Positions 778-46,739 of a stretch of 64,000 bases of DNA are shown here, piece by piece (position 1 is the stretch's first letter; each line of letters starts with the position of its first letter). The position numbers were made by a program, and so were the translations under genes. This stretch comes from Ostreococcus lucimarinus. Lineage: Eukaryota. The notes under the pieces are model-generated. The model did not search any database. It saw only the letters and a list, made by a program, of their open reading frames with translations, and had not been told where the DNA came from. The stretch is from NCBI GenBank assembly GCA_000092065.1, contig CP000590.1. One strand, given 5' to 3'.

Positions 778-3700
778 TTAGTTTTTGCCTACTTTTTTCC
801 CTCCCAAGAACGATTTTAAGAATCGTTTAAATACTCGACAATCGTTTGCGCAGGTCTCGTTCGTCAAAAACGCGACCCACTCGCGCTTGTCGGATAGCTT
901 TGTTTTGGGCTTCGGGAAGGCGTCGTCTTCGCCGCCGAGCGCTGCCAACATGACGCCTTGAAATCTCTCGGTGCCATACGTGCTCCAAACGAGGTGCAAA
1001 GCCGCAGAAATATCGGATATCATACTCGGTGGCATCTCGCCGTTTGCTGCTTCGAGGATTTTGCGCACGATTACGACGCTGTGAGATTCCATCGCCGCGG
1101 CGACGGCGTCCGCGACCGGCTTGGCTGAACGTCGATTCCACTCGCACGTCCCTCGCTTTTTGTTACTTTGACCCGAGATCTCCGCCGCTAGACGCCCGAG
1201 ACCGGCGTGCATGGCGCTCGCAGAAGCATTCTTCGCAGTGGACGCCAACTCGGCACTCAACATCACCGGCGCTCGAAGCAAGTCGGTCGCGAATAACAAA
1301 GCCGCCGCCGCGGGTTCGTCGGAGACTCCGCGCAGCGACGCCTGACTGACTTCGACCATCATACGAAGATGCGGAACTATTGCGACACACGCAGTGCGCA
1401 GTGTCGCGCGCGCGAGCGTGAACGCGCTCGTCCACCCTTCGCAATCTTCGAGAGATGCAGGTAAGACGGTCGCCAAGAGCTCGACGACAACGTGACCGAC
1501 GGATTGAAATTTCGTCCCTCCAATCTCAATTCCGCATCGGCTATCGCCATAGAACTCCAGCATAACAGACAACGCATCCAGGTAACACGCGCCGAGACCC
1601 GGTGCTCGCATGTACGCCTCGACTGAAATTCGAACGACAGCTCCCAAGAGCCCATCGACGAAGCGCGCCAGCTCCACGAGAGCCTTCATCGCCCATGCGA
1701 CTTTAAAGCGCTCCTCGACCATTCGATGATCGACAATTCGCAAGCTCGTCTGCTCAACCGCAATCGCGGCGCGCGTTGCCAACCCGGCGAGCACCTCACT
1801 GGGCGATTGAATGTGTTCATACGCGCTCTTCATCGCTCGAAGCACGATATCCAAATCAACCAAACGACGAACATATTCTTCCGAGCTGCCGCGGTGAAGG
1901 GAAACATTCATCGCCTCGATGACGGGCTCGGCGAGCGACGCGCAAGCACTTTCTGTCTGCTCTCGACACTCGCACTTCACATAGAACGTAAGAGCGCGAA
2001 GCAAAACGGTTGATTCGTGTTCTTGACCCAGACGCAAAGTCGGCGACGGCGTCGGCCCACCGCGAACGTGAAGCTCGGCTAAAAGAGACGGTACGTCCGT
2101 GGCGCCAAGTCGCGAAGCTGCAAATTCAGAGAGCTTCATCATCGCCACAGCGGCACCTCGTGCGACAACAAATTCTGAATGGCTCATCGAACGAATCAGC
2201 GCGTGCGAAACGCCAAGAAGAATGTTGTCTTCAAGCTGCGAAATGCACTTGGCGACACCCGCCAGAACCCAACAAGTGGATTCCAAAGTCGCTTTCGGAA
2301 CAACTTCACTCGTCGATAAAGTGCACAAATTTTCAATCAAGATCGCAAAAGACGACTGATTAGCTTCAGCTCGGAAGGATTTCGCTAGTGAGAGCAATAC
2401 GTACAGACGCGCGTTTAGCGTTCTCCATCCACCGCTCTGTGCGGCGGACATCTCCGCGCAGAGGCGCTGATTGAAGTCGCCGAGTATTTCTTCAATCGGC
2501 ACGGCTGAAATGACGTCGCGAAGACAATCAGAAATTTCTTCCTTCACTTGGTCGTCGTCCAGATCGTGCTTGGGCAAGAGTTGAACGTACAGCACTGCGG
2601 CGTGAACGCATCGCTCCGCCACCGGGCGAAGCAACTCCACAAACGAATCCGGCGTGAATGATTTCGCCAGCTTACCCCAAGGTTCCAGCGCCGACGCCAT
2701 GGAGGCACCGACAGAAAGCGCCTCGGATAAGCCATCGAGTGCGAAAAGCAACACTTCTGTGTCGATATCCACGGCGATATTTGTCTTCTGCTTCTGCTCC
2801 GATCGCTGCGTCTTCTTTTGTTGTCTTTGCAAACTTTTGAATTCGGCGTACTTGACATACGTGCGATCGCCAGCCGCATCTGGTCCTGTCGCAAATGGAC
2901 TTTTGGTCGCGTCTTTCTGGTCTCGCAAAGCCTTCATCGCTACGCTCGAAAGTACGTTCACGATCAGCGCGCGACTCTCCTCCGATCTCTCAGCTTTGAC
3001 GACTTCAGCGCGCAACTTTGCTAGACTCGTCGCAAGCAACGCACGAAGCTCAGTGTCACTCGTCCAAACGCACTGCACCAGTGACGCACACGCCGCGCTC
3101 GCGGCGCTTTGTTTGATGTTTGCGTGGTGATCTTCCGAGCACACGATGTGTAGCGCGCCTTCAAGTATGACGCGAGGAAATCTCGGTGTGACGTTTGCGA
3201 TGTCCGCCCACGCCGCGAGAGCATCGAGTATGTACTTGTGTAACAGCGTGTCGCCACTGGCTGACGTCGCGAGCTGCTGGAGCAAGTCCATGACGTCGTT
3301 CGCGGTGCTACGCAAACCAGTCAATACTTGCTCGCGGCGCGCCGGATGTATGGACAACTCTCGGGAACTCGCTTCCTGCGGCACGAACGCCAAAAATGTG
3401 CACAAACACAACAACTTGGCTTCATTCGACACGCGAGCGTCTTCCTGAAACACCTTGATGACGTCTCGCACGACCGCTGTGGGATCCCATGTCGGCATTT
3501 TACACGCCAACGCCGACGTGGCTAGCGCGAGTTGCGTCAGCGTGCTTCTCAAGTCGACCGCACGCGACGCGTTCGACTCGTCGTGCGCGAACGACGAGGA
3601 ATTCACGGCAAAGAGCATCGTCAGCTTCAACACGCGCGAGCGAAGATCGATCCAATCGCGTTCCGTGAACGCCGCGTGCGACGCCTGCGTCCGCTCCTCC

Positions 3701-4121: not shown

Positions 4122-7100
4122 ATGGGCAAACGAACCAGAGACAAGGCGAAAGCCGAGGTAGAGGACGACGACGATGACGTCGACGCCTCGGCCTTCCCTC
4201 GAGGCGGCGCCGCGAGCGGTGGACGCGGCGATGAAGATGCGTTTCCTCGAGGCGGCGGCGGCGGCGGCGACGGTGACGACGCCGGACGGGGCAGGAAGCG
4301 TCGATCGAGCCAACGAGGCGGTGATGGCGATGGAAGCAATGACGATGACGATGATCCGTTCTCGCGAATCTCACGCGCGGCGAAAGGGGCGAGTTCGAGA
4401 GCGGTGTCTTCGAGCGGCGGCGGGGCGAAGTACGTCGAGACTTTGAAGTACAAGTCGCTACGACCTGGAGCTAAACTTTTGGGCATCATCTCCGAAGTTA
4501 CCGCGCGGGGATTAGTGATGAGTTTACCAGACGGCTTGCGCGGCACCGTGGCGCGCGCGGAAGTTGCTGGCACGTTCGGGAGTAGTCGACGCAACCGCAC
4601 CGCCGCCGCCGACGGCTCGGAATCTTCGGAGGAGGAGTATAGCAGCGACGAGGACGACGATGACGATGACGCAGAGGCGAGCTTGGAGTTGCTGTACGAG
4701 CCCGGGCAAGTGCTTCGATGCGCGGTGGTGAGTTTGGAGAAAGGTAAAACGGGTGGCAAGAGAATCGAGTTGTCTCTCAGACTAGAAAAGGTGTGCGAGG
4801 GCCTCACAAAGGAAAGTCTCACCGAAGGCTCGGTAGCGCCAGCCGTAGTTCAAAGCGTCGAAGATCACGGCTACATCTTGAGTTTTGGTATCGCAGATAC
4901 GAGCGGATTCTTACCGAAGAAAAATGTGGCGAGCGATTTGGGCGAGATTCGTAAAGGCAGAATCATCGATGTAGTCATCACCGGCGCACCAAAGGGCAAT
5001 AAAGGTTATTTTACCGTGACGAGCGATCAGAAGCGAATCAAGACTTCGGTCGCCCACGAGACGTCGGCGACGAATGTCGATACATTGCTTCCGGGGATGC
5101 TCGTAAATTCTAGAATCAAGCAAATACTTTCTGACGGTGTCTCAGTTTCTTTCATGACTTACTTCAGTGGCACCGTGGACTGTTTTCACACTGGGGCTCT
5201 TGCGACGTCGAAAGGGGTTTCGTCCGCGTTTAAAGTAGGGCAACGCATGCGTGCGCGAATCATTTTTGTCGACTCTGCGTCGAAGCGTGTTAGCCTAACC
5301 TTGCTGCCGCATCTGCTTGATTACGCGTCCATCGAACTTCCAAAGCTTGGCAAAACTTTCCAAACTGCCAAGATTGAGCGCGTGGATGCGGGTCAAGGGG
5401 TCGCGCTGAGTATTTCAGATGGTAAGAACGATATCGCTGGATATGCACACGTTTCACAGCTTTCTGACGAACGCGTGGAAAAGGTGGAGAAGAAGTTCAA
5501 AATCGGAAGAAGCGTAAGTGTTCGCGTCATCGGTCATCGTTTGCTCGATGGAGTGGTTAGCGTCAGTTTGAAGTCATCTGTCATGGCTCAACCTTTCTTT
5601 TCATTGGATGAACTCACACCAGGGATGCTTGTGAACGGCGAAGTTCTCGCCGTTGAGCATTACGGAGCCATAGTGAAACTTGCCGAGGGCATTAAAGCGC
5701 TGTGTCCCCCGCTTCACATTTCTGACATTGTCGGCCGAACGACTTCTGCAAAAGTCGCCCCTGGTGCCAAATTGAAGTTCAGAGTATTGAACGTGGATCG
5801 AAATAGCCGGAGAGCGACGGTATCGCATAAAAGAACGCTCATCAAGTCCGAGCTCCCAGTAATTGGTCAGATTGAAGACGCTGTGCCCGGATCAATCACG
5901 CACGGCGTGGTGACGGGCGTGAATGAGTACGGTGTGTTCGTCTCCTTGTACGGTGATTTGAAGGGTCTGGCTGGTTTGAATGACTTGGGTCTTCTGCGAG
6001 ATCAAAAACCGTCCGACGCGTTTGGTGTCGGACAAGTTGTTCGAGTACAGGTTGTTTCAGCCGACACGTCTGGTCGGTTACGTCTTTCGCTCGCGTCTGG
6101 CGACGCGGATGGAAACTCTGCGAGCATGATTATTAATGCGTCCGCAGATGCCTTGAAGCCGGGTCATGTCGTTGAAAAAGCAGTGGTCACGCACGTGGCG
6201 TCGGGCACAGGTAATGTCGAGGTGGTTTTTTCTATGGAAGAAGGCAACATACCAGGCGTCGTGCCGCTCGCCCATTTATCTGACCATCCGCTGACGGCGC
6301 AAGGATTGAGCGCTGTTCTCAATCCCGGTGACGAGATTGGTCCTTTAGTAGTTCTTGAAGGCAAATCAACTCGAGCAGTGATGTCGCGCAAACTTTCACT
6401 CGTGGAAAGCTCGCGAGAAGGGAAGCTTCCAGCGACGGCGAAGGAAGCGACGCTCGGCGCAGTGTTCCCAGGCTACGTCGCATCAGCCACCGCTGCGGGC
6501 GTTTTCGTTCGCTTTTTAGGTCGACTCACCGGTCTTGCACCGCCTTCACAGCTCACAGACGGTACTACGGGAGACGTGCACGAAATGTTTCCGGTAGGTA
6601 AGACTGTCAACGCATTAATACTGTCTGTGGATACGTCCACGCCGACGCCGAGGTTGTCACTCTCATTGAAAGTTTCTGCCACTTCGTCGCCTCTCAGCGA
6701 TGCACCGTTGGTTCGCTCGTTTTTCCAGGATATTGAGTTTCTCGATGACAGAGATGTCGGAGCCGAAGACGTGGGTATATCACCTGAAACCGCAAAGTCG
6801 CTCAAGCCCGGTACGTGGATGGATGTGTCAGTTAACGAAACAAAGGATTACGGCGTTTTGATGGATGTTCCGATCGATTCCAACGTCGTCGGTCTGGTGA
6901 CGCCTCATCAGATACCAGTAGACACGACGTTCACAGCGGGGGATGAGGTAAAAGGTTACGTTTTAGACGTCAGCCGCCGAGAAGGCGTAGTTGACATCGG
7001 CATGCGGGATGGATTGGGCAAATTCAAGCGAAACAAGACGTCGTCTGGCAAAAGTTTGAAGAAGCTTAAGGTGGGAGATCAAGTCTCCGCTGAGGTCGAA

Positions 7101-28102: not shown

Positions 28103-29311
28103 ATGAATCAGCCTGATCGAGGCGGTTTAACGCGTCGAAATGTCGGTCATGGCGGTCAAGACGACGAGTATTCGACACCGAGTAAGCGTATGACGAATAT
28201 ACTCAAAGCGTTGGACGCGAATCCGAAATTAAAGGAGGATTACGTGAGCGAATCGACGTCTGGGGTGATCACTACTTTGGTGTGCGCGGCGTTGTGTTTG
28301 ATTTTGTTCTTTGGCGAATTCTTCTCGTACAAGACGACGAAAATCGTGAGCGAATTGAGAGTAAATCCGCTCGGTGTTCATCAAACGGTGCCCAACGCGG
28401 AAAGACTGAAGATTGACGTCGATATTACCTTTCACAGTCTGGCTTGCAATCTCATCACGCTCGACACCTCGGATAAAGCCGGAGAAGAGCACTACGACGT
28501 GCACGATGGTCACATCGAAAAGAGGAGGATAGACAAGCATGGGAAAGTGATTGATGCTGCGTTTACTTCAGAAAAGCCAAACAAACACAAGGAGATTGAG
28601 CAAGCGCTGCAAAAGATGAACGAGACCGACTCCGCACACGCCGCCGACTCTCATGCCATGGAGCACGTGCAGCCGTTCGGTGGTATGTTTGGTCTACAAA
28701 GTTTATTGCAAGAAGTGTTTCCAGAGGGCGTGGAGCATGCGTTTAGAAACGAGAATCAAGAAGGGTGCGAGGTGAAGGGTTACCTTGAAGTGAATCGGGT
28801 ACCGGGACGGTTTTCCATTTCGCCGGGACGTTCGCTCATGATGGGGATGCAAATGGTCAAGCTAAACGTGCAGACGGCATTAAATTTAACGCATACGATT
28901 CACAGGCTGTCATTTGGGGAAAGCTTTCCCGGTTTGGTGAGTCCACTCGACGGAACGCACCGCTCACTTCCGCCGAACGCGGTGCAGCAATATTTTCTTA
29001 ACGTTGTGTCGACGACATTCGAGCCTTTGGGAGAGAACAAAATCATCAGCACTCATCAGTATAGCGTTACTGAAACTTTCACAAGCTCACAGCGATCAAT
29101 TATGGGGACGTCCAACGGCCGTGATCCGGGCGTCATCTTTACTTACGAAATATCGCCGATTCGCGTCGACTTCAAAGAGACTCGCACGTCGTTTGGTGCA
29201 TTCGTCCTGGGTATCTGTTCCGTCATCGGAGGCGTCGTCACTATGGCGGGTATCACGCAAAATGCCGTTGAGTATATTATTTCTAATCGCAAGACCCTCT
29301 TCGCGTCATAG
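28103..29311 (+). CDS. ERGIC3: ER-Golgi intermediate compartment protein ERGIC/ERV41-46 family (ERGIC_N plus COPII-coated ERV domain), 402 aa
   Basis: ATG at 28103. It has N- and C-terminal TM segments flanking a luminal domain: LKALDANPKLKEDYVSESTSGVITTLVCAALCLILFFGEFFSY ... GAFVLGICSVIGGVVTMAG. The gene lies in the lower-GC island. Confidence 0.75.
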   Translation: MNQPDRGGLTRRNVGHGGQDDEYSTPSKRMTNILKALDANPKLKEDYVSESTSGVITTLVCAALCLILFFGEFFSYKTTKIVSELRVNPLGVHQTVPNAERLKIDVDITFHSLACNLITLDTSDKAGEEHYDVHDGHIEKRRIDKHGKVIDAAFTSEKPNKHKEIEQALQKMNETDSAHAADSHAMEHVQPFGGMFGLQSLLQEVFPEGVEHAFRNENQEGCEVKGYLEVNRVPGRFSISPGRSLMMGMQMVKLNVQTALNLTHTIHRLSFGESFPGLVSPLDGTHRSLPPNAVQQYFLNVVSTTFEPLGENKIISTHQYSVTETFTSSQRSIMGTSNGRDPGVIFTYEISPIRVDFKETRTSFGAFVLGICSVIGGVVTMAGITQNAVEYIISNRKTLFAS

Positions 29312-29469
29312 ACATTAGCAGTTGTAGCGTCCTAGTGTACATCGAGTCACATCAAACCATGAGTTACGTCCTGTAGTCCTCGCGCTCTTCCTCACACTTC
29401 GCCGCAACTACAGATGACCAAAATAAGTATTAGCAATCTTGAATACCTCGTGCGCGCCTTCCTCGGGTG

Positions 29470-32400
29470 ATGACGCGCGTGGTGGCCGTCGGTGCAATTC
29501 TCTTCTCCGTGACCCTGCTCTGTTCTCTCGTCGCGAGCGTGGGTGTATGTTCCAACGACCTCACAGGTGCATCCCTTCTCAATGCTTTGAGCGATATGAG
29601 GATAGGTACAGATACCGACATGAGTTTTGTATTCTTTGCCGCACTCGTAGACGTCGGTCTGCAGTCGTATTGCGGGAATACGCTGCGAAATTTGGGTAGT
29701 GCGTCTGCTCAGACTCTCATTCTCGTTCCCGACAGTGCCTTTGAGAGGGCGTCGATAGTCATGGATAAAGGATTAGAAGAAATAACAAGTGACAGAGTCC
29801 TCGTCTGTGAAATTTTGGAGTCATCCATCGTGCAAGCAGCATTGAACAGCCGCGATGTTCGAGACGGAGACGAGCTCTCTACCGCGTCAATGCGTATGCC
29901 CAAGCTTCGCGTAGACGTCGTTCAAGACATAAACGTTCGCAAATTACGAATTTTCACTGATGTTGGAACAACTATCGCTGATTTATTCGCGACAGATGTC
30001 GCTCTGTGTCCTCGCTTGAGTGCCGTGTTCGCCTCAGAGCTCTTGATACCATTAGTCGAGTCAAACGCTTTTCCCAGTGTGTGGAAGATATCAAAATCAT
30101 TACCAGAGCTTAGCACGAGTGCTGAAGCATTTCGAATCACTGATTCGTTGCGCGTGATATTCGAATCGAGCGAATACGATGGCTACGATGGGACTGTGGG
30201 GAGGTCAAGTTTGCAGACATGTGTCTTTGATGGAACAAATCATGGATTTCGCGCTTATTTCTTACCATCGAATCGCGCCTGGAGACGGTTCTTTCGCAAA
30301 ACTGAGCTCACAAAATCTGCTCTTTTCTCAGATTACTCCCTTCTTCTCAGTATCCTGCTTTACACTGAAGGACAGCTAACGTCGACACAGCAAAGTATTG
30401 ACTTGAAGTCGTACTTGTCGACGAGCCTCGTCCCAGGACAATTGCTACGCCCCGTCGGGGCGTCTACAATTTTGAGTGCCTTTCCAGGACAAGTGGAGAT
30501 TCCAGCTTTGCGAGTGGACGTGGACATATCTAAGGTCAGTTCGCGATACGTTAGAATTTCTGGTGGGAGCACGAGCAGTCGCTTTGATAACACCGCCGTC
30601 GTCGTCGCCGCAGATATTGTTTCATGCACTGGCATCGTCCATATCATCGATGATGTGCTAGTTCCACCAATGTTGACAGCATTTCGTCAGCTCTCATTGC
30701 GTAGCGAGCTGTCTATGTTTACAGATCTGTTACGAGCGCCCGCAATGCATGAGTTGATGCTCGAACTCGATACACCATCCGAAACGAATATATTTGCTGA
30801 CAGCGTCGTTTTCGCGCCAACAAATGTAGCGATTCGACTAACTTTGAATTACATCGGTTGGACGTTCGAAGATTTGTTCCAGAGGGACGCACTGTTGCGA
30901 CAATTTGTCACGTACCACGTCATAAGTACTCGAAGCGCCGAAGGAGCCCCTGAAAGACTCAAATTTCGTCTAGGACTCGGTCCCGAGGAACAGCAGTTTG
31001 CCACGCGCTTGGCATATCCAATCTTAGCGAAGAGCTACGCTAACACGTTCCAAGGCACGCCCATCGCTAAGACAGTGAAAGTACTCTCAACTCGCCGCGG
31101 CGTGAAAAAGTTCTTCACACCCCGCCATGTGCTTCGAGGACGTTTAAACTCTGCACGGTTCATCAAAAGTGACATTCCATCGACGAATGGCGGTATCGCT
31201 ATTATCGATGCGGCGCTCATTCCACCGACGGCGGAATTCGGAGTGACTCTTTACGATAGAATTCTTCGCACACCGACGCTGCGTGTTTTTCGTGAACTTA
31301 CAAGCGTTCTCGGCCTCCAGCGCGAGTTTGACACGCAAGGTTTTGGAAACGGTGACTGTACCGTATTTGCACCGACGGATTCCGCATGGGTTACCTTACT
31401 TGCCGATCTCATGACGACGCAGGAGGAAATCGCAAACCGCGCCACAGCGATGCTGTACGATATTATCATGCTCATGCTCGCCCCTAGAACGGAAGAATTT
31501 CAAGAGATTGAACGCGAACTTTATGACCCATGGCTGTCAAAGGACGCACTGGATGGTGACGAGCTCGTGACCGCGCTCTCGGGGTATACGACGGTGAGAG
31601 TACTTTGATTTAATTATTTCTCGTTTAATTATTTTTCCAAATTTTCCAGCATGCAAACATTATCCATTTCGGCGCATTTGAGAGATGCGTTGGTCAGAGC
31701 TGCACTCCTACGAGCACACTAGTAGCCGTACCTCGAGTTGTGGGTCCAGTGCTGGCGCAATCGTCGTTTACAAGGTAAATATATCGTATTCATCAGTGCA
31801 TCAATTTAATTAATTTCATCAGTACGACCTCATGGAAAAACTATGCAAGAATTATTTCGCCGGTACGCCGATTTTGTGCACGAGATCGCGCTATGAGCTC
31901 TGACAACTCAAGTAGGACATGGCAAGCGGACAACACGCCCTGAACGGCGAGCTTTACGTGGTAAAATAATTAGTTTTGGTCTGAGAAATATTTAATTAAT
32001 TTTCAATGTTCGTCCTGATTTCACAGATAGATACGGTGCTTCTACCGCGCCTTGGCGAGCGTTGCCGCACGGCAGACTTTACATACAACGCGGGCAGCGC
32101 ATTTGAGCTGCGAGATGGGCGCGTTCGACGATATGAGCGTTGTTTAGCACCGCCGTGTTCCTACACTTTACCAGGTGGGAATTATTTTCTCGAATTAATT
32201 TTTAAAACATTTCATTTGCTCCTACACGCGCGCTTTTTGCTGACCTTTGATTTTTCTACCGATCAAACAGGACTTTACGGTCGCGCTGGTGTGCGTATTT
32301 CTGTAGAAGCTTTCGTGACGTACGACGCGTTACCAATTTGCGACTCGTGGTGCGTATTAATTTCTTGGTGGTGGTGTGTTCCGTGCACCGGAGTAGTAGC

Positions 32401-33169
32401 TCAAACTATAGCCACGATCGGTGGATGTGCGCCCTATCAATCTCAGTGCGGTGGTTCCCTCGTTGTTTTCGTCACGGACGCGGGTGAAGTGCGATTTGGC
32501 GTGCAAACGTTCATGGACTCCTACAATAATTTACCGCTCAGTTTGGGCGGTGGTTTGCGCATCGTCGACGTCTCGGTGCCAGGCAAGGGTTTTTTTGCGC
32601 GCGACGGGATCGCGTTCAAAGTGCTCTGCACGTACGATGGCGTTTCGAATACGACAAAGATTTACATCAATGATAAGTTAAGGGGTATAGCAGATCCGTT
32701 CGTCATGGGTCAGTTTTTGTTTCGCCCGTTCCACAACGTATCCGGGAACTTGCACGAGAAGATCACGATTGGCAACAGCATGCACTCGGCTGCTTCCGCC
32801 ACGAACACTTTAACTGACTTTCAAGGTATGCACGAGACGAGTAATGGAACTCCAGATACACGAGATGGCACATTACCGGCAATTGGTCAATTTGCGACCT
32901 ATGACGCCTCGCCGCTCTTCGACGGCTCCCCAACAACGCAATATTTCTTGCCGTGGAGGGGCACGATTCACGAGGTGTACGTGTATTTTGACAACGGACT
33001 ATATCAAGGGATTAGATATCCTTCAACTTGCGTGCACTTAGAGCCCGTCGAACCCGAAGCCGATGATTTTAGTGATTTTGTGACTCGTCGCCGCCGTCTC
33101 CACGAGACGCCGGTTTCCAGAGTGCGCGTTGGCCCTCGGCGGCGTAGTGACATTCGGGCTACTAGCTAG
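29470..33169 (+). CDS. Secreted multi-FAS1 (fasciclin) domain protein with a C-terminal Cys/Trp-rich domain. Proposed 5-exon model, about 1100 aa: join(29470..31593, 31685..31774, 31916..31960, 32027..32174, 32271..33169).
   Basis: The first ATG at 29470 follows the GTG at 29467. There is a signal peptide (VAVGAILFSVTLLCSLVASVG). Three FAS1 domains are complete, with H1/H2 boxes (VVFAPTNVAI, TVFAPTDSAW, GIVHIIDDVLVPP, NGGIAIIDAALIPP). The fourth FAS1 domain is cut by the apparent stop at 31606. Its missing H2 box (ALNGELYVIDTVLLP) opens the next track ORF, 32006..33169. Phase-0 GT..AG introns are proposed at 31594-31684, 31775-31915, 31961-32026 and 32175-32270, all AT-rich and 66-141 nt. They restore ..SGYTT|MRWSELHSYEHTSSRTSSCGSSAGAIVVYK|DMASGQHALNGELYV|IDTVLLP.., which aligns with the pattern of domains 2 and 3 (..GGSTSSRFDNTAVVVAADIVSCTGIVHIID). 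The alternative is two separate genes, 29470..31608 and 31919..33169. Confidence 0.5.
31594..32270 (+). other. Cluster of four short AT-rich spliceosomal introns: 31594..31684, 31775..31915, 31961..32026 and 32175..32270
   Basis: Direct reading: GTGAGA...AG, GTAAAT...AG, GTAAAA...CACAG and GTGGGA...AACAG boundaries. The intron bodies are much more AT-rich than the flanking exons. All are phase 0 in the proposed model, except that the last begins after codon position 1 of GGT (phase 1) and is 96 nt long. In-frame stops inside them (31606 TGA, 31913 TAG) are removed by splicing. Confidence 0.5.
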
Positions 33170-33187
33170 AGGTCGAAACTACACAAA

Positions 33188-36100
33188 CTATAAGACTAAT
33201 GATTTGAGAATGTTTGCCGCGAAAGTCGCTTCCCTACTTTCCTTCCTGTCACCATCAAAGCAACACTCAGGCACGATGGCAGAAACAGGGGGAAGACTGA
33301 CTCGCTGCGATCCAGCCTCGGGCGCGACACTCCAGACTGGAGTGGGAATGTCAACCAAAAGACAGCCACGAGCCGCGGTTGCCATCGAGTATAGCCAAAC
33401 TTCATCACCGTTGACTTTTGCGAAAGCACGCGTTGCGTTCGCTGCGACGAGTCGCAAAGCCTCGTCGTCCTCCATGGCAAGCTTGGCCACGACGGGCACT
33501 GCCGCCCCGAGCAAATCGTGTAGCGCTTGCTTTGATTTTTCGCACGATGCGATGGATTCTAAAGTATCGCATATTTTGATACGGATGCGTCTCGTAAGCT
33601 CTGATGAAATCTCCGACTCAGCGATGAAGCTTGCATCGACGGTATCTGCCAGCGTAAGAAGTTCGAGCGATCGGTGTCGTTTGTCAACGTGACAAACACC
33701 TTGTTGCAAAACGCGCGACAGTATAGGCCATAGATCCGAGTTCATGCGTTTGGCGATGAAATCGCCACCACTTGTCGAAGCCATGGTTCGAAGTAACGAC
33801 AAACTCGCTTCGTACGCTTCAGCTTGAATCGAAATTTGAAATCGGTCGCTGAGCGATGATACCGCATGAGGCCAGATGTTATGGATGTGTGGCAGTACAC
33901 GGGCATCTTTGTAGAGGGAAGCCACATCAAAAGGCGTGGAATTCCTGCCTCCGTAAGCTTTGAGTACTTTTAAGACGTATTTATCATGCGTCAATGCAGA
34001 TTCTGCTGCTGAAAGGCTCTCAAGAGCGAACGAGCAAGCCGTTGCAGATAAACTTCGAACGCCGGCGTAAGGCGACTCCAGCAGCGCGCTGACCGATCTC
34101 AGCAAGTCTATCGCACAACCGACCATGGCCTGAAGGCGACGAACGCGCTCCAAGGACTGAGCCCGGGTGGTTTCAATGTCCTGCGAAAGCACCGAACGCA
34201 TTTCTTCGACAAAGACCTCCGTCAGCTCGTTCTCGTCTTCGCTGTCTGGCTCCTCCGGGTGATACTTTTGTATGCTAGCCACAACACCTCGCGAGTGTGT
34301 CTCTATCTCTCGCACCTCGAGCAACACTGCTGAACAATATTCATTCATTACGAGCAGAAAATCTTCGGAGTGCTCCGCATTTTTTTCTCTATTGACGATC
34401 AAAAATGTGCGCAACGCCAATCGAATCGGCTCTGCGAGAAGCTTCACCATGCTCTTTGCCGCATCAGTCCTCCTCAGAATAGCCGCAAAGAGTCGAGGAG
34501 CGCGTGAGTGCTTATCTAAATGCCGCATTTGTCGAGAAAGCATATCCACAACGTAGTCTGCGTTCGCAACGACAAGACTCGCTATTGGTGAATCATCGGT
34601 TGAATTGTATTCTCCGCTTTGAGCCAACTTGAGCAAAACAAGCGCTGCGGTGTCTCGCACCTCAAGCGATTCTTCACCGAGCTTATCGAGTAATGGACAA
34701 AGTACGTTTGTCAAAAATGCACTTGTTCGTATGTGATCTTTGCCGAGTCCTTCTCCGATGATCCCCATGCCTTCCATCAACACGCGTAGTAAAAGAGCGT
34801 TGTCCGGTTCCGCAGCGTCAAGATTCCACACCTCGCTGCATACGTACTCTTCGACGATCAAACTGGAGACGCGAACAAGATATTCTCTTTCGACTGCTGA
34901 TTCAGTGATGGCGCCAAAAAGCATTTCATTGAGCGCTATCAGGTGGGCTGCCGCGTTTCTTTGCCATGCACCCGCGGTGCCCAATGCGTCGAGCTCTGCA
35001 TCATTTCTCAATGTGCCGAGAAAGTATTGCGCCATTGGCACAAAATACGTTTCCAGTGAAGATTCGTTTGTGATTGATGCCGCTCGACCGAGTAATCTTA
35101 GCATTTTTGCAAAACTTTTGTACATGGATGCGTCGGGGAAGTACTGCAACCTAGGAGGCGCCCGTGGCAACCCTTGCGCCGTCGACACGCTGGCTTCGGT
35201 CAAATCAATTAAACTTATCATCTGCGCGCTGCCATCTCGTCGTTGAGAAGAAAATGTTTCGATGAGCAGACACTCCGCAATGGTAGAGCACAAATGTTCT
35301 CTCGAGCTCGGACGGGCGAATAGCGTTTCTTTCAAGCGCCGAGCGCCGGCGAATTCCAGAGCGATGAGCAAGCGCTGAAGATGCCCGACAGCCTTATCGG
35401 AAGAATCACGCAGCGTGTCTGCTATGTTGGACAAATCGTCTTTTATGATTGCCTCCAAGTCTGCTCGGACGACGTAGCCGAGGTTGTCAAGAGATCTCAA
35501 ATCTTCCAATATGGGCGTCGAGACTTGTGCCCAACTATCTCCCGCGAGCGTGAGTAAGCACTCCATCATTCTACGCCTCGTCTTCGCGCCCAGAACTTTT
35601 GCACAATGTTTTAAGACGCTACTCGCCATTTTTCCAGTCGCAAGTCTCACGGTCGCGCGCTGATGACTCGCTAAGGGTGGAATTGTCGCTAAGAGCGCCG
35701 CTTCAACGCGAGAGCTCGCGAGAGAGAGCCATTCTTTATCTCGAACCACCTTGAGATCTTTACCAGCGTTCGCAGGGGATACGGACGCGTTTTCGTCGTT
35801 CATATCCCTCGACATATTTTTTGCGTTCGATTCCAGCTGATCGTCTATCGATCGAGCGACGAGAGAACCCAGTGCGCTTTGCAACGCATTTGCACCTTCG
35901 CCCTCTGCGGAATCGCCGAGCTCTGATTCGTACAACGAGTCGTTCAGAACGCACGACAGAATGGACGCCATCGAACTCAGGGCAAACTCGACGCCATCTG
36001 CGCCAGTTCCTCCCGGCCCAGCGCCAACGTTTGGGCGAACACCACTCGCCGCGACTAACGCCTTGGTCAACCCAGACACCGTGCCCGGAAGGAAAAACGC

Positions 36101-36847
36101 GAGAGCATCGGCGTCGGCGACAAATCGAATCAAGCAATCGAGCGTGTTCAACGCACTCGAGCGCAGAAGCTTACTCCCTTGCGACCCCGCGCTTGTTTCT
36201 TCGTGCGAAATCGCAAGGAGCGTAGAAATCGTGAACCCGAGCATAGGTGCGATCTCGGAGGCGCCTCGAAATGCTGCTTGCACCTCTGTGGACGCCGCCG
36301 CGCAAAACGCGCGCGTCGCCTCCAAGACTTCCATGCATACCGTCTCGTACTCGCCTCGTCGCGGTAACGACAAGACACCGACAATCCCACTGAATATTCT
36401 CAATCCCATTTCTCGCGTACAGTCTTCCCCGCTTTTCGTCATCGCCTCTCCCGTCGTTCGCAGCGCGCTCTCGAGCAACCGCCGCCGGCGCGCCACATCC
36501 TTCGGCGCCGTCGTCGCTTCAACATCACTCGGCGCGCTCGACTCCTCCATCATTCGCGACACGTTCGCTCGAAGTATCTCCACGCACGGTATCGCGCACA
36601 GTTCCAGCGCGCGTCGCTCGCTCGGTGCTTCCGCGTGCGTCTTCCGTAGGCGCTCCACGGCGTCTCGCGCCTCGTCCGCGAACCGCGCCTCCGCGCGTCC
36701 TCGCGCCGCGCTCACCATCACCGCTCGACTGGCGTCGATGAGCGCATCGGTCGCGCCCGTCGTCGCCGTCGTCGTCGTCGTCGCGTCCCGTTCGTTCGTC
36801 GCTTCCGTCGACATCTCCGCGAAACGAGTTTCGCGCGGCGAATCCAT
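33188..36847 (-). CDS. Large HEAT/ARM-repeat protein, about 1220 aa, of unknown specific family (possibly TTI1-like)
   Basis: The continuous ORF is helical-repeat-like throughout. The start is set at the ATG at 36845-36847 (MDSPRETRFAEMSTEATNERD..). The 5' extension of the track ORF is the antisense of the KEKK repeat plus the (GTTCG)n microsatellite, not coding. The gene spans a GC transition from about 70% at its 5' end to about 45-50% at its 3' end. Confidence 0.55.
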   Translation of the reverse strand: MDSPRETRFAEMSTEATNERDATTTTTATTGATDALIDASRAVMVSAARGRAEARFADEARDAVERLRKTHAEAPSERRALELCAIPCVEILRANVSRMMEESSAPSDVEATTAPKDVARRRRLLESALRTTGEAMTKSGEDCTREMGLRIFSGIVGVLSLPRRGEYETVCMEVLEATRAFCAAASTEVQAAFRGASEIAPMLGFTISTLLAISHEETSAGSQGSKLLRSSALNTLDCLIRFVADADALAFFLPGTVSGLTKALVAASGVRPNVGAGPGGTGADGVEFALSSMASILSCVLNDSLYESELGDSAEGEGANALQSALGSLVARSIDDQLESNAKNMSRDMNDENASVSPANAGKDLKVVRDKEWLSLASSRVEAALLATIPPLASHQRATVRLATGKMASSVLKHCAKVLGAKTRRRMMECLLTLAGDSWAQVSTPILEDLRSLDNLGYVVRADLEAIIKDDLSNIADTLRDSSDKAVGHLQRLLIALEFAGARRLKETLFARPSSREHLCSTIAECLLIETFSSQRRDGSAQMISLIDLTEASVSTAQGLPRAPPRLQYFPDASMYKSFAKMLRLLGRAASITNESSLETYFVPMAQYFLGTLRNDAELDALGTAGAWQRNAAAHLIALNEMLFGAITESAVEREYLVRVSSLIVEEYVCSEVWNLDAAEPDNALLLRVLMEGMGIIGEGLGKDHIRTSAFLTNVLCPLLDKLGEESLEVRDTAALVLLKLAQSGEYNSTDDSPIASLVVANADYVVDMLSRQMRHLDKHSRAPRLFAAILRRTDAAKSMVKLLAEPIRLALRTFLIVNREKNAEHSEDFLLVMNEYCSAVLLEVREIETHSRGVVASIQKYHPEEPDSEDENELTEVFVEEMRSVLSQDIETTRAQSLERVRRLQAMVGCAIDLLRSVSALLESPYAGVRSLSATACSFALESLSAAESALTHDKYVLKVLKAYGGRNSTPFDVASLYKDARVLPHIHNIWPHAVSSLSDRFQISIQAEAYEASLSLLRTMASTSGGDFIAKRMNSDLWPILSRVLQQGVCHVDKRHRSLELLTLADTVDASFIAESEISSELTRRIRIKICDTLESIASCEKSKQALHDLLGAAVPVVAKLAMEDDEALRLVAANATRAFAKVNGDEVWLYSMATAARGCLLVDIPTPVWSVAPEAGSQRVSLPPVSAIVPECCFDGDRKESREATFAANILKSLVL

Positions 36848-37027
36848 CGAAATCTCTCGAATCAATCCAATCGACCCAATCGCTCGCGCGTTCGCGCGTT
36901 CGCGATCGGTGTCCGGCGCGCGCGCGATCGTCGACTCGAGTTCGTCGGTGCGTTCGCGCGCGTCATCGTCCGTCGCGTCCGTCGCGTTGTGCGACGCGCG
37001 TCGTCCGCAGTCGTCCTCGCGCGCGCA

Positions 37028-37097
37028 GTCAGTCAGTCGGTTCGGTCGTTCGGTCGTTCGGTCGTTCGTTCGGTCGTTCGTTCGTTCGTTCGTTCGG
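37028..37097. repeat. (GTTCG)n/(GTTC)n microsatellite in the divergent promoter between the HEAT-repeat gene and the DEAD-box helicase gene
   Basis: Direct reading: cagtcagtcggttcggtcgttcggtcgttcggtcgttcgttcggtcgttcgttcgttcgttcgttcgg. Its reverse complement, (GAAC)n, recurs at 63172-63228 upstream of HSP60. Confidence 0.85.
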
Positions 37098-37150
37098 CGT
37101 CCCCGGTCCCGCCGCCGCCGCCGCGGACGACGCACAACTCGACGACGACG

Positions 37151-38743
37151 ATGGGGAAAGAGGGCAAGAGGGAGAAGAAGAAGGAGAAGAAGGAGAAGAA
37201 GGAGAAGAAGGAGAAGAAGGGCAAGCGCGAGCGCGACGCGAACCGCGACGGCGGCGCGCGGGAGTCGTCGAAACCCACCACGGCGACGAAAAAGGCAAAG
37301 ACGACGCGCGATGACGAGGGACAGACGTTCGGGATGGCGGCGGTGGGCGATCGATCGATCGCACAGTCCGGTGATACGTTTCAACGCGTGTTTTACGACG
37401 CCCCGGCGTCGTTGAAGTCGATGTCGGCGAGCGAGGTGCAGGCGGCGCGAGACGCGTTGGCGGTGACGCAGGTGGACGGTTTGTCGACGGATTTAGCGCC
37501 GGTGTCTTCATTCGCAGATGCGGGGTTTTCGAAGGAGCTGCTGCGAGTGACGGCACAGTTTAAGACGCCGTCACCGATTCAAGCGCAATCTTGGCCGATC
37601 ATCATGAGCGGGCACGACATGGTGGGGATCGCGGCGACGGGTTCCGGGAAGACGCTCGCGTTTGGGATGCCGGCGCTGACGCAGATTCACTCGCAACCAC
37701 CCTGCAAGCCCGGTCAGCCGATCTGTTTAGTGCTCGCACCGACGCGAGAATTGGCGCAACAAACGGCCAAGGTGTTTGACGACGCCGGCGAGGCTTCTGG
37801 GGTGAGGTGCGTATGCGTGTACGGGGGCGCTCCCAAGTACGAACAAAAGGCACAGATGAAGGCGGGCGGCGGAGCCGCGGTCATCGTCGCGACACCGGGT
37901 CGTCTTCGAGATTTCATGGAAGAGGGCGTGATTAAACTTGATAGAGTGACGATGTTAGTGCTCGATGAGGCCGATCGCATGCTGGATTTGGGTTTTGAGC
38001 CTGAAATTCGCGCCATCGCCGGCGCCACGCGCGCCGATCGACAAACCGTGATGTTTTCTGCGACGTGGCCTCAGAGTGTGCAAAGCCTCGCTTCGGAGTT
38101 TATGTGCAATCCTATCAAGGTTCGCATCGGTGCCGAAGGTTTGAAAGCTTCTCAAAGCATAACTCAAATCGTCGAAGTCGTCGAGCCGCAGGACAAGGAT
38201 AGACATTTGGCGCGAGTCATGAAGCAATATTTGGGCAAAGGCAAAGAGGTGCCTCGAACCCTCATTTTCGGTTTGTACAAGAAAGAGTGCGCAAATTTGC
38301 ACCAAAGACTTAGCCGTGAATGGCCAGCAGTGTGTATTCACGGCGACATGTCTCAGCATGATCGTGAAAAGTCGGTCGATGCGTTCAAGAAAGGCACGTC
38401 TCGAATCTTGATTGCCACCGACGTCGCCGCCCGAGGTCTCGACATTAAAGAGGTGGAGTATGTCATCAATTATACGTTTCCTCTCACCACGGAGGACTAT
38501 GTTCACAGAATCGGTCGTACCGGTCGCGCTGGTGCAACGGGCTTGGCTCACACATTTTTTACATTGCACGACAAGGCGAGAGCGGGCGAACTCGTCAACG
38601 TGTTACGAAAAGCTGGCGCAGAAGTTCCAGAAGAACTCACTAAGTTCGGCACGCACGTGAAGAAGAAAGAAAGTAAGTTGTATGGCGCGCATTTCAAGGA
38701 CGTGGACATGTCGGTGAAGGCTACGAAGATCACGTTCGATTAA
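37151..38743 (+). CDS. DEAD-box ATP-dependent RNA helicase (Dbp3/DDX5-like) with an N-terminal K/E-rich tail, 530 aa
   Basis: ATG at 37151 (MGKEGKREKKKEKKEKK.., encoded by the (GAGAAGAAG)n repeat at 37171-37215). Helicase motifs are present: Q-motif FKTPSPIQAQSWP, AATGSGKTLAF, PTRELAQQ, DEAD (LVLDEADRMLD), SAT (MFSATWP) and HRIGRTGRAG. Confidence 0.88.
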   Translation: MGKEGKREKKKEKKEKKEKKEKKGKRERDANRDGGARESSKPTTATKKAKTTRDDEGQTFGMAAVGDRSIAQSGDTFQRVFYDAPASLKSMSASEVQAARDALAVTQVDGLSTDLAPVSSFADAGFSKELLRVTAQFKTPSPIQAQSWPIIMSGHDMVGIAATGSGKTLAFGMPALTQIHSQPPCKPGQPICLVLAPTRELAQQTAKVFDDAGEASGVRCVCVYGGAPKYEQKAQMKAGGGAAVIVATPGRLRDFMEEGVIKLDRVTMLVLDEADRMLDLGFEPEIRAIAGATRADRQTVMFSATWPQSVQSLASEFMCNPIKVRIGAEGLKASQSITQIVEVVEPQDKDRHLARVMKQYLGKGKEVPRTLIFGLYKKECANLHQRLSREWPAVCIHGDMSQHDREKSVDAFKKGTSRILIATDVAARGLDIKEVEYVINYTFPLTTEDYVHRIGRTGRAGATGLAHTFFTLHDKARAGELVNVLRKAGAEVPEELTKFGTHVKKKESKLYGAHFKDVDMSVKATKITFD

Positions 38744-45689: not shown

Positions 45690-46739
45690 ATGAGACTGAC
45701 GAGGGCGCGCGCGCGCGGACGCACAGACGATCAGTGCTGGATTTGCCTGGACGGGGACACCGCGGACAGAGAGGTGCGCGCGCGACGACGCGCGACGACG
45801 CGCGCGACTCGATCGCCAAGATAGGCTTTTCCCATACAAATGTGACTTTTTGGGCGAAAATATCTTTCGCGCGAGATCCCGCGTTTTTGGTGGCGTGTGT
45901 GTAAACAAACGGTCGGACCGGGACCGGGACCGGTTCGCGTCGGACGCGTCCGGAGCGCCCGGAGCGCGACACGGGGGGTGGGCCGGAGCGATGAGACTGA
46001 CCGATGATCGCGCGTTCGCCTCGCGCAGTTGTATCATCCGTGCGCGTGTCCGCGATGGGCGCACGCCAAGTGCGTGGCGCGATGGCAGTTGCAGTGCTCG
46101 GGGAAGCCGGAGGAGGTGACGTGCAAATTTTGCGCGTCCAGACTGCCGGATTGGCGAGCGACGCTGTTCAAAGACGTAGTGCGCGCGAGTGACGACGCTG
46201 TGGTGCCGACGTCGACGAGTGGATCGAAGAAGAGAAACAGTATGGATGAACGTTTACTACGCAGTTCCGCGGACGGAGACGACCAAGAAGCGGGGACGCC
46301 CGGCGACGAAGAGACGGACCACAAAGACGGACCGGGAGAAATCAAGGGCGATATCATCGTCAAGTTTAATAATATCTCGTTCCGATGCCAAGTTCGCACC
46401 GGGCCGGATGGATTGGCGGATTTCATGCGGCAAATCAGAGAACGTTGCGGGATACCGGAGGAGAAGATGAAATCGCTCAACCTCACGTATCGGTGCAAGG
46501 ATCCGAACAACGGGATGCCGATGACGTTGGAAGGGCTGAACGAGAGCGCTTTCGATGCCGCGGTTTTATGCTCGGCGGTTCAAGATAAGATCAAGCATCA
46601 AGCTCGCGTCGATTCGGCGGTAAAGTCTTCTCGAACTACCGAAATTACGTCTAGATCCAATAGAAGGCGTTCCGGTGACCGCAACTCCTTCGAGGAAGGT
46701 CGCCGTGAACAAGTCTCAGCGTTTCGACGATTCGAATGA
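45690..46739 (+). CDS. C4HC3 zinc-finger (RING-CH/PHD-like) plus PB1-domain protein. Two exons: join(45690..45773, 46029..46739), about 265 aa.
   Basis: Exon 1 (MRLTRARARGRTDDQCWICLDGDTADRE) supplies the first Cys pair. Exon 2 (track ORF 46029.., which starts at TTG) supplies LYHPCACPRWAHAKCVARWQLQCSGKPEEVTCKFC, completing a C-x2-C-x13-C-x-C-x4-H-x2-C-x16-C-x2-C finger. The GC-rich intron 45774-46028 runs GTGCGC...CGCAG, is 255 nt long (a multiple of 3) and is phase 0. The C-terminal region GDIIVKFNNISFRCQVRTGPDGLADFMRQIRERCGIPE..LNLTYRCKDPNNGMPMTLEGLNESAFDAAV is PB1-like. Two TGTAA motifs lie in the 3' region. Confidence 0.6.

Follow-up and report, generated by a model that had tools for sequence, protein, structure and literature searches.

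The window analyzed here comprises 64,000 nucleotides of Ostreococcus lucimarinus DNA (contig CP000590.1), and it probably contains, at positions 29470-33169 on the + strand, a single fasciclin (FAS1) gene with 6 exons and 5 short GT-AG introns that would encode a product of 1126 amino acids. We place the probability of this reading, which is built on sequence comparisons, at about 85%. In the reference annotation, the region is instead represented by 2 adjacent single-exon genes for proteins of 712 (FAS1) and 387 amino acids. The + strand contains an open reading frame (ORF) of 713 amino acids at 29467/29470-31608, with the C-terminus ..ALSGYTTVRVL*, which is followed by an ORF of 387 amino acids at 32006-33169. 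The FAS1 ORF was an exact match to XP_001419880.1 / ABO98173 / A4S397 (712 amino acids) and the downstream ORF to XP_001419881.1 / ABO98174 / A4S398 (387 amino acids), which adjoins XP_001419880.1. The NifU gene and the ERGIC-like gene in the window exactly matched XP_001419878.1 and XP_001419879.1, and all 4 matched proteins, which identify the strain as CCE9901, are located on one record of 613,585 bp. A first-pass annotation of the window had suggested that the 2 ORFs represent one split fasciclin gene with 5 exons. The split gene was borne out by conservation across 7 loci and by intronless relatives, but the 7-locus model contained 6 exons.

Homologs of the FAS1 ORF were identified in 11 ORF clusters with 43% to 100% sequence identity, in all of which the ORF ends no more than a few codons from the conserved ..LS.Y.. 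site. Gene models were built by hand from three-frame translations for 7 orthologous loci (the window and loci L001, L005, L007, L008, L009, and L010, with protein identities of 43% to 100%) and were then verified with a script in all 7 loci. The genes for Nop14, CysRS, NifU, ERGIC, the FAS ORF, a same-strand ORF of 200 to 304 amino acids, and TTI1 on the opposite strand were syntenic across the loci. The three-frame translations contained 4 conserved coding blocks between the 2 ORFs, 3 of which corresponded to exons 3, 4, and 5 of the first-pass annotation. The fourth block was located directly after the sequence ttttccAG at 31649 and was conserved in another frame (HANIIHFGAFERCVGQSCTP..PRVVGP..) than the one that had been proposed for exon 2. 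A further conserved block, N[FY]A[RQG]II[SA]P followed by GT, was identified within 31775-31915 and was kept in all 7 loci.

The same structure of 6 exons and 5 GT-AG introns, open and with identical phases, was present in all 7 loci (Table 1). Exons 2 to 5 were 122 to 125, 28 to 40, 45, and 148 nt long, and introns 1 to 5 were 49 to 63, 47 to 59, 53 to 57, 56 to 67, and 86 to 97 nt long, respectively. The lengths of exons 4 and 5 did not vary among the loci, intron 3 measured 53 nt except in one locus, where it measured 57 nt, and exon 3 measured 28, 37, or 40 nt, each of which equals 1 modulo 3. All 35 introns had GT..AG ends, and nearly all acceptors were YAG. The divergence at codon positions 1, 2, and 3 was 0.17, 0.12, and 0.52 in exon 4, 0.30, 0.22, and 0.63 in exon 5, and 0.51, 0.49, and 0.65 in exon 2. 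Conservation across the loci thus indicates the positions, phases, and reading frames of the exons; that the introns are actually spliced is what we infer. The exon at 31916-31960, the intron at 31961-32026, the exon at 32027-32174, and the intron at 32175-32270, all of which keep their position, phase, and length in the 7 loci, had been placed correctly by the first-pass annotation.

The 2 models differ in the second exon and in the sequence between it and 31916. The first-pass annotation had correctly set the donor of the first intron at 31594, after ..GYTT, but had placed its end at 31684, whereas the conserved acceptor is the ttttccAG at 31649. It had then proposed a 90-nt exon 2 at 31685-31774, read in the frame MRWSELHSY..VVYK, followed by a single AT-rich intron of 141 nt at 31775-31915. 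In this arrangement all junctions are GT..AG, the proposed spliced peptide was reproduced exactly, the frame is open over 1101 amino acids, and the Fasciclin hidden Markov model (HMM) spans profile positions 4 to 123 unbroken with a score of 27.7 bits. The 90-nt block is open in the proposed frame, but the other loci do not conserve this frame, and the comparison with an 85%-identical relative gave 10, 8, and 2 substitutions at codon positions 1, 2, and 3, so that the third positions are the least changed, the wrong pattern for coding sequence. The frame HANIIHFGAFERCVGQSCTP..PRVVGP, with the conserved pattern N.I.F...C.G..C...PR..GP, was the sole frame of exon 2 that was stop-free in all 7 loci, as compared with 0 to 5 stops in the other 2 frames, and the substitutions relative to the same relative were 13, 4, and 13. 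Furthermore, the acceptor at 31684 (gagAG) has no conserved signal in front of it, whereas the acceptor at 31649 aligns with those of the other loci. The presumed 141-nt intron was resolved into an intron of 48 nt, a previously overlooked exon of 40 nt, and an intron of 53 nt, and the GC content of its 3' part is 0.51. Treating it as one intron drops the segment NYARIISP, which is kept in the 7 loci, in Micromonas (NVAQIIPP), and in the repeats of the protein itself. Three of the junction pairs proposed by the first-pass annotation were right, but its exon 2 was not, and we consider the 5-exon structure very unlikely.

The 2 spliced models were also ranked with an HMM that was built solely from the ends of FAS1 domains 2 and 3 encoded by exon 1 in 11 homologs. 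This repeat HMM gave a score of 13.3 bits for the 6-exon model, 10.1 bits for the first-pass model, and 6.3 bits for a variant with a microexon of 13 nt, and its consensus NsAkviasD..nGvvhiiDdvLIP matches NYARIISPD..NGELYVIDTVLLP. The microexon variant, in which exon 3 is reduced to AATTATTTCGCCG with the acceptor gcaAG, was rejected; the other loci lack the AG, the N[FY]A upstream of it belongs to coding sequence that is conserved, and the repeat-HMM score was the lowest of the three.

Table 1. Exons and introns of the predicted fasciclin gene, and copies of AATTAATT in its introns
Feature	Position	Strand	Length (nt)	GC	Description
Exon 1	29470..31593	+	2124		Ends ..ALSGYTT; identical to XP_001419880.1 up to the intron; signal-peptide-like N-terminus, FAS1-like but degenerate region, 2 FAS1 domains detected by Pfam, and the first two thirds of the final FAS1 domain
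Intron 1	31594..31649	+	56	0.25	Phase 0; GTGAGA...TTCCAG; TTAATTA twice (~31610, ~31625); in-frame TGA at codon 5
Exon 2	31650..31774	+	125		Ends in phase 2; encodes HANIIHFGAFERCVGQSCTPTSTLVAVPRVVGPVLAQSSFT
Intron 2	31775..31822	+	48	0.25	GTAAAT...CATCAG; contains TTTAATTAATTT; retention would give an immediate stop (AGG TAA)
Exon 3	31823..31862	+	40		Encodes (S)TTSWKNYARIISP; within the 141-nt intron of the first-pass annotation
Intron 3	31863..31915	+	53	0.51	Not AT-rich; GTACGC...AAGTAG; CTCTGAC 12 nt before the acceptor
Exon 4	31916..31960	+	45		Encodes DMASGQHALNGELYV, first half of the FAS1 H2 box
Intron 4	31961..32026	+	66	0.26	GTAAAA...TCACAG; contains TTTAATTAATTTT; in-frame TAA at codon 3
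Exon 5	32027..32174	+	148		Ends in phase 1; encodes IDTVLLPRLGERCRTADFTY...CLAPPCSYTLP(G)
Intron 5	32175..32270	+	96	0.35	GTGGGA...AAACAG; CGAATTAATTTTT near the 5' end; TGCTGAC 33 nt before the acceptor
Exon 6	32271..33169	+	899		Length includes the TAG stop; Cys-rich segment CDSWC..WWWCVPCTG..GGCAPYQ, beta-rich C-terminal domain, basic tail
AATTAATT copy, intron 2	31808-31815	.			
AATTAATT copy, intron 4	31994-32001	.			
AATTAATT copy, intron 5	32193-32200	.			

Searches with the Pfam Fasciclin profile (PF02469) gave 77.9 to 79.5 bits for the whole protein, which is above the gathering score, and 31, 31.6, and 28.9 bits for the single domains. Three FAS1 domains were found by Pfam, while the first in the protein (residues 26-205) is recognizable by motifs only. 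The first-pass annotation had noted that the 713-amino-acid ORF ends inside a FAS1 domain with ..LSGYTTVRVL*, which was confirmed here: in the unspliced ORF, domain 4 covers only profile positions 3 to 53 and scores 21.4 bits, just below the cut-off of 22. After splicing, the score increased to 28.9 bits in the 6-exon model and 27.7 bits in the first-pass model. Since domain 4 exceeds the cut-off only when spliced, splicing appears to be needed for its completion. The last FAS1 domain is complete, with the C-terminal H2 region (..NG.vhvID.VL.P), only in the spliced translation, in which ..ALNGELYVIDTVLLP is restored. The end of domain 4 and a Cys-containing linker are encoded by exon 5.

The beta-rich C-terminal domain had a weak match to Laminin_G_3 in 5 of 20 family members (best E-value 0.043), and a PDB profile search with this domain gave no match. 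AlphaFold models of exon 6 and of the Micromonas pusilla protein had pLDDT values of 46.7 and 34.2, which is too low for a fold search. The product would be a secreted or surface protein, in which a signal peptide is followed by FAS1 repeats, a Cys-rich linker, and, at the C-terminus, the beta-rich domain.

The continuity of the protein is seen in relatives that lack the introns or are annotated as one protein. Among the homologs of exon 6, MICPUCDRAFT_54765 (an annotated protein of M. pusilla) and several ORFs from metagenomes run through the region without a break. When 5 intronless Micromonas-type proteins were aligned to the window with tblastn, each gave a single alignment from 31916/31925 to 32680/32698 (E-values 1e-70 to 1e-76), with query gaps of exactly 22 and 32 codons that coincide with introns 4 and 5. 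The M. pusilla protein additionally aligned with the end of exon 1. In BLASTP searches against this protein, the 6-exon product scored 192 bits and the first-pass product 178 bits; the former was 39% identical over 308 aligned columns that extend across all junctions, and the NYARIISP of exon 3 was paired with NVAQIIPP. It was also noted that the M. pusilla protein (511 amino acids), which is encoded without introns in the region homologous to exons 2 to 6, begins inside the last FAS1 domain (..GDASVFAAVDIAW..), and the gene model is therefore probably truncated at the N-terminus. An HMMER search with the C-terminal domain identified 60 representatives, and 7 of the 9 long ones carried Fasciclin domains N-terminal to the C-terminal domain. 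Relatives with both parts include annotated proteins of Pycnococcus provasolii, Pseudoscourfieldia marina, Bathycoccus prasinos, and Diacronema lutheri.

These relatives bear on the possibility that the 712- and 387-amino-acid proteins are encoded by 2 independent single-exon genes with noncoding DNA between them. This is the current NCBI and UniProt annotation, both ORFs start with ATG, and no spliced protein is on record. However, the 712-amino-acid product would stop inside a FAS1 domain that scores below the Pfam cut-off, and the blocks from exon 2 to exon 5 are conserved as coding sequence although most of them lack start codons; exon 5, for example, has none in most orthologs. The first 7 residues of the 387-amino-acid ORF and an insert of 32 residues are absent or interrupted in every relative, in which the downstream ORF calls (200 to 304 amino acids) begin at variable points. 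In M. pusilla, Pycnococcus, Bathycoccus, and Diacronema, the FAS1 and C-terminal domains are contained in single polypeptides. We find a pair of independent genes hardly credible.

A single gene with 6 exons would also account for how the region came to be annotated. The in-frame TGA in intron 1, five codons in, would end the first ORF, the ATG at 32006 inside intron 4 would open the long downstream ORF, and the latter would run through intron 5, which in O. lucimarinus has a length divisible by 3 and no in-frame stop and can thus be read through. The reference annotation, or any ORF track, would thereby cut the gene into XP_001419880.1 and XP_001419881.1. The downstream ORF starts with MFVLISQIDTVLLP, and its first 7 residues are intron 4 sequence. 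It does not, as the first-pass annotation had stated, start exactly with the H2 box; the box itself is split by an intron, and 'ALNGELYV' is encoded by the separate 45-nt block at 31916-31960 upstream of this ORF. Retention of intron 5 breaks the frame in all 6 relatives, by an in-frame stop in L001, L008, L009, and L010 and by a length not divisible by 3 in L005 and L007, and the later starts of the downstream ORF calls in these loci are consistent with this interruption. In the 85%-identical relative (L004, 1640-3955; P0002), intron 1 is stop-free and its length is a multiple of 3, which explains an ORF call of 771 amino acids that runs into exon 2.

The AT-rich blocks described by the first-pass annotation are real and exceptional. 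Only four 40-nt stretches with a GC content of 0.20 or less were found in the 64-kb window (31590-31670, 31766-31845, 31950-32034, and 32162-32229; GC 0.15 to 0.20), and these are located between the 2 ORFs and inside the start of the second. The description does not extend to the region of intron 3, with a GC content of 0.51. Elsewhere in the window, the genes consist of long, uninterrupted ORFs and contain no AT-rich blocks. A scan of 29000-33600 against Rfam matched no RNA family.

Several observations speak against the 6-exon gene. The spliced protein was absent from a collection of 15 billion proteins, a search for sequences spanning the junctions returned none, and none of the cluster members that were read for spliced forms was spliced, all being genomic ORF fragments. 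Exon 2 is fast-evolving, with a weak codon-position signal, and Pfam alone does not separate the 2 spliced models, either by the whole-protein scores or by those of domain 4 (28.9 versus 27.7 bits). As intron 5 is stop-free and of a length divisible by 3 in O. lucimarinus, its retention keeps the frame open. Furthermore, alternative 3' splice sites may be used, as the acceptors at 31684 and 31849 (13-nt exon 3) are frame-compatible in O. lucimarinus alone.

It is also conceivable, albeit unlikely, that the intron cluster of a single gene has a regulatory role, such that retention of intron 1 yields a FAS1-only isoform of 712 amino acids or a target for nonsense-mediated decay beside the full-length protein. 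Of the introns in the window, 1, 2, and 4 have in-frame stops near the donor and 3 shifts the frame, and 5 introns within 700 nt are unusual for an intron-poor genome. The stop-free intron 1 in the 85%-identical relative has also been counted in its favor. On the other hand, AT-richness alone predicts stops in short introns, and regulation by retention would be an addition to the 6-exon gene rather than an alternative to it.

The introns of the predicted 6-exon gene share a sequence motif. The 8-mer AATTAATT has 3 matches in the 64-kb window as compared with 0.33 expected, all of which are located in introns 2, 4, and 5 of the fasciclin gene. Among the 35 orthologous introns, which are not independent samples, TAATTA was present in 21 (2.9 expected from dinucleotide shuffles) and AATTAATT in 16 (0.8 expected), and neither count was reached in any of 1,000 shuffles. 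TAATTA was found in intron 1 of all 7 loci and AATTAATT in intron 4 of 6 of the 7 loci, while intron 3 contained no TAATTA motif. The top k-mers were all of the (AATT)n class, with frequent extensions to CGAATTAAT or TTTAATTAATTTTC. Within each locus of 10 to 14 kb, AATTAATT was essentially confined to the fasciclin intron zone, except that L009 also has one copy in exon 6. An 8-mer is unlikely to have been retained passively, since third codon positions are near saturation between the lineages. The motif could possibly represent overlapping UUAAU branch sites, an explanation that is weakened by its 5'-proximal position in intron 5, or TAA stops in several frames that guard against intron retention. 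It might also be a putative palindrome bound by a protein, or the result of neutral tetranucleotide slippage in AT-rich DNA.

Downstream of the fasciclin gene, the minus strand contains a TTI1 homolog at 33188-37384 with an ORF of 1398 amino acids and a low-complexity N-terminus of poly-L and poly-R in the GC-rich segment at 36 to 37.4 kb. The relatives of this protein measure 1149 to 1220 amino acids, and the ORF is therefore probably over-extended at its 5' end. The stops of the 2 convergent genes (33169-33188) are separated by just 18 nt, which means that the 3' untranslated regions must overlap. Upstream, at 28103-29311 on the + strand, the ERGIC/COPII-ERV ORF encodes 402 amino acids (380 to 407 in relatives). 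The annotated XP_001419879.1 contains 373 amino acids and may thus be another imperfect gene model. In locus L003, the cysteinyl-tRNA synthetase gene (1509-3498, minus strand) is split into ORFs of 519 and 154 amino acids, whereas L001 and L002 contain a single ORF of 657 amino acids; the split could be a frameshift or an assembly difference. At the 1-kb scale, the window is a GC mosaic with a mean of 0.57, as compared with about 0.60 for the genome. Values of 0.49 to 0.52 were observed in many gene bodies, such as those at 19 to 24 kb, 28 to 36 kb, and 38 to 40 kb, and values of 0.68 to 0.72 in patches at 17 to 18, 45 to 46, 48 to 53, and 59 to 61 kb.

If the 6-exon gene is correct, the RefSeq and UniProt records A4S397 and A4S398 ought to be combined into a single protein of 1126 amino acids. 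The annotation error propagates, in that related truncations occur in ORF calls from metagenomes and in the M. pusilla model. We consider the result a sound re-annotation, in which both the kind of gene and the kind of intron are known. Two points are modestly new, namely the apparent location of the gene off the outlier chromosome and the conserved intron motif. Short AT-rich introns that were thought to mark the outlier chromosome of the Mamiellales would then be able to reside, conserved, in an ordinary chromosome, and the cluster of 5 introns with a candidate motif would provide a compact test case for the recognition of signal-poor introns.

The predicted protein resembles the multi-FAS1 proteins M. 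pusilla MICPUCDRAFT_54765, Pycnococcus provasolii XRA99647.1, and Bathycoccus prasinos CAL6298523.1, in which FAS1 repeats are followed by the segment ..CR..DF..PC.Y.PGLYGRAG..CDPWC..WWC.PCTG..GGCAPYQ and a beta-rich domain. It differs from them in length and in how many FAS1 repeats it contains. In the Micromonas-type genes, the region is free of introns. The O. lucimarinus gene has been annotated as 2 genes.

Canonical introns of the Mamiellales have the donor AG/GTGCGT and the branch point NCTGAC / GACTGACG (PMC3491373, PMC3879977, PMC2367439). The fasciclin introns have the same GT-AG ends, some of their donors are GTGCG or GTACG, and TGAC-type branch-like sites would be retained in intron 3 (GTACGC..CTCTGAC..TAG) and partly in intron 5 (TGCTGAC, 33 nt before the AG). 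Canonical introns have a mean length of about 187 nt in O. lucimarinus and are few per gene, whereas the fasciclin introns are much shorter, 4 of the 5 are strongly AT-rich, and all are clustered in one gene. A scan of the window for the extended branch motif GACTGACG gave no site in the fasciclin introns. Sites were located at 8427, 14631, 14913, and 59149 on the minus strand and at 45694, 50862, 53020, and 57364 on the plus strand, which suggests that other genes in the window contain canonical introns.

The introner elements of Micromonas (IE-A to IE-D) are likewise introns specific to the Mamiellophyceae, and in both cases a clustered gain is suggested. These are copies of repeat families in GC-rich regions, whereas the 5 fasciclin introns share just AT-rich cores of 13 to 30 nt, with no family-level repeat similarity among them. 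Introner elements have been reported to be absent from the published mamiellophycean genomes other than Micromonas (PMC3879977).

In size and composition, the fasciclin introns resemble the small, AT-rich class known from the big outlier chromosome (BOC1) of the Mamiellales (Moreau et al. 2012, PMC3491373; Verhelst et al. 2013, PMC3879977). BOC1 introns are 40 to 65 nt long, or by definition shorter than 75 nt with a GC content below 43%, and have been reported to lack a conserved motif and to be restricted to the low-GC part of the chromosome (PMC3491373, PMC3879977, PMC2367439). The fasciclin introns occur in the same taxon, with several in the host gene, and share the GT-AG ends, the lack of a canonical extended branch point, and positions that are conserved between species. 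Introns 1 to 4 (56, 48, 53, and 66 nt) fall below 75 nt and intron 5 (96 nt) does not; introns 1, 2, 4, and 5 (25% to 35% GC) fall below 43% GC and intron 3 (51%) does not. Introns 1, 2, and 4 fit the BOC1 description in both size and composition, and introns 1, 2, 4, and 5 belong to the small AT-rich type known from this chromosome. With a sharp drop in GC content relative to the exons, as in BOC1, the AT-rich introns would be recognized largely by this drop.

The fasciclin introns differ from the published BOC1 introns in that intron 5 by length and intron 3 by GC content are outside the definition, and in that they commonly carry (AATT)n / TAATTA, together with the TGAC-type sites in introns 3 and 5. 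They also differ in their location: the low-GC region is on chromosome 2 in Ostreococcus, whereas the fasciclin gene appears to be on an ordinary chromosome, presumably chromosome 9. This assignment is based on the 613,585-bp record, on the long uninterrupted ORFs of the other genes in the window, and on the EukProt protein indices 4522-4524, which by the per-chromosome gene counts fall in chromosome 9 (4122-4535; PMC2367439, Table 1). We offer as a tentative and rather doubtful proposal that BOC1-type introns are not confined to the outlier chromosome and carry an (AATT)n / CGAATTAATTT palindrome that is maintained by selection. If so, this element could serve redundantly as a UUAAU branch site or recognition site, as a cassette of TAA stops in three frames that guards against retention of the intron, or as a protein-binding site, in contradiction to the published view of a signal-free class of introns. 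The cluster of 5 introns would then represent an old conserved outpost of the BOC1 class, present in at least 7 Ostreococcus-like lineages and absent from Micromonas.

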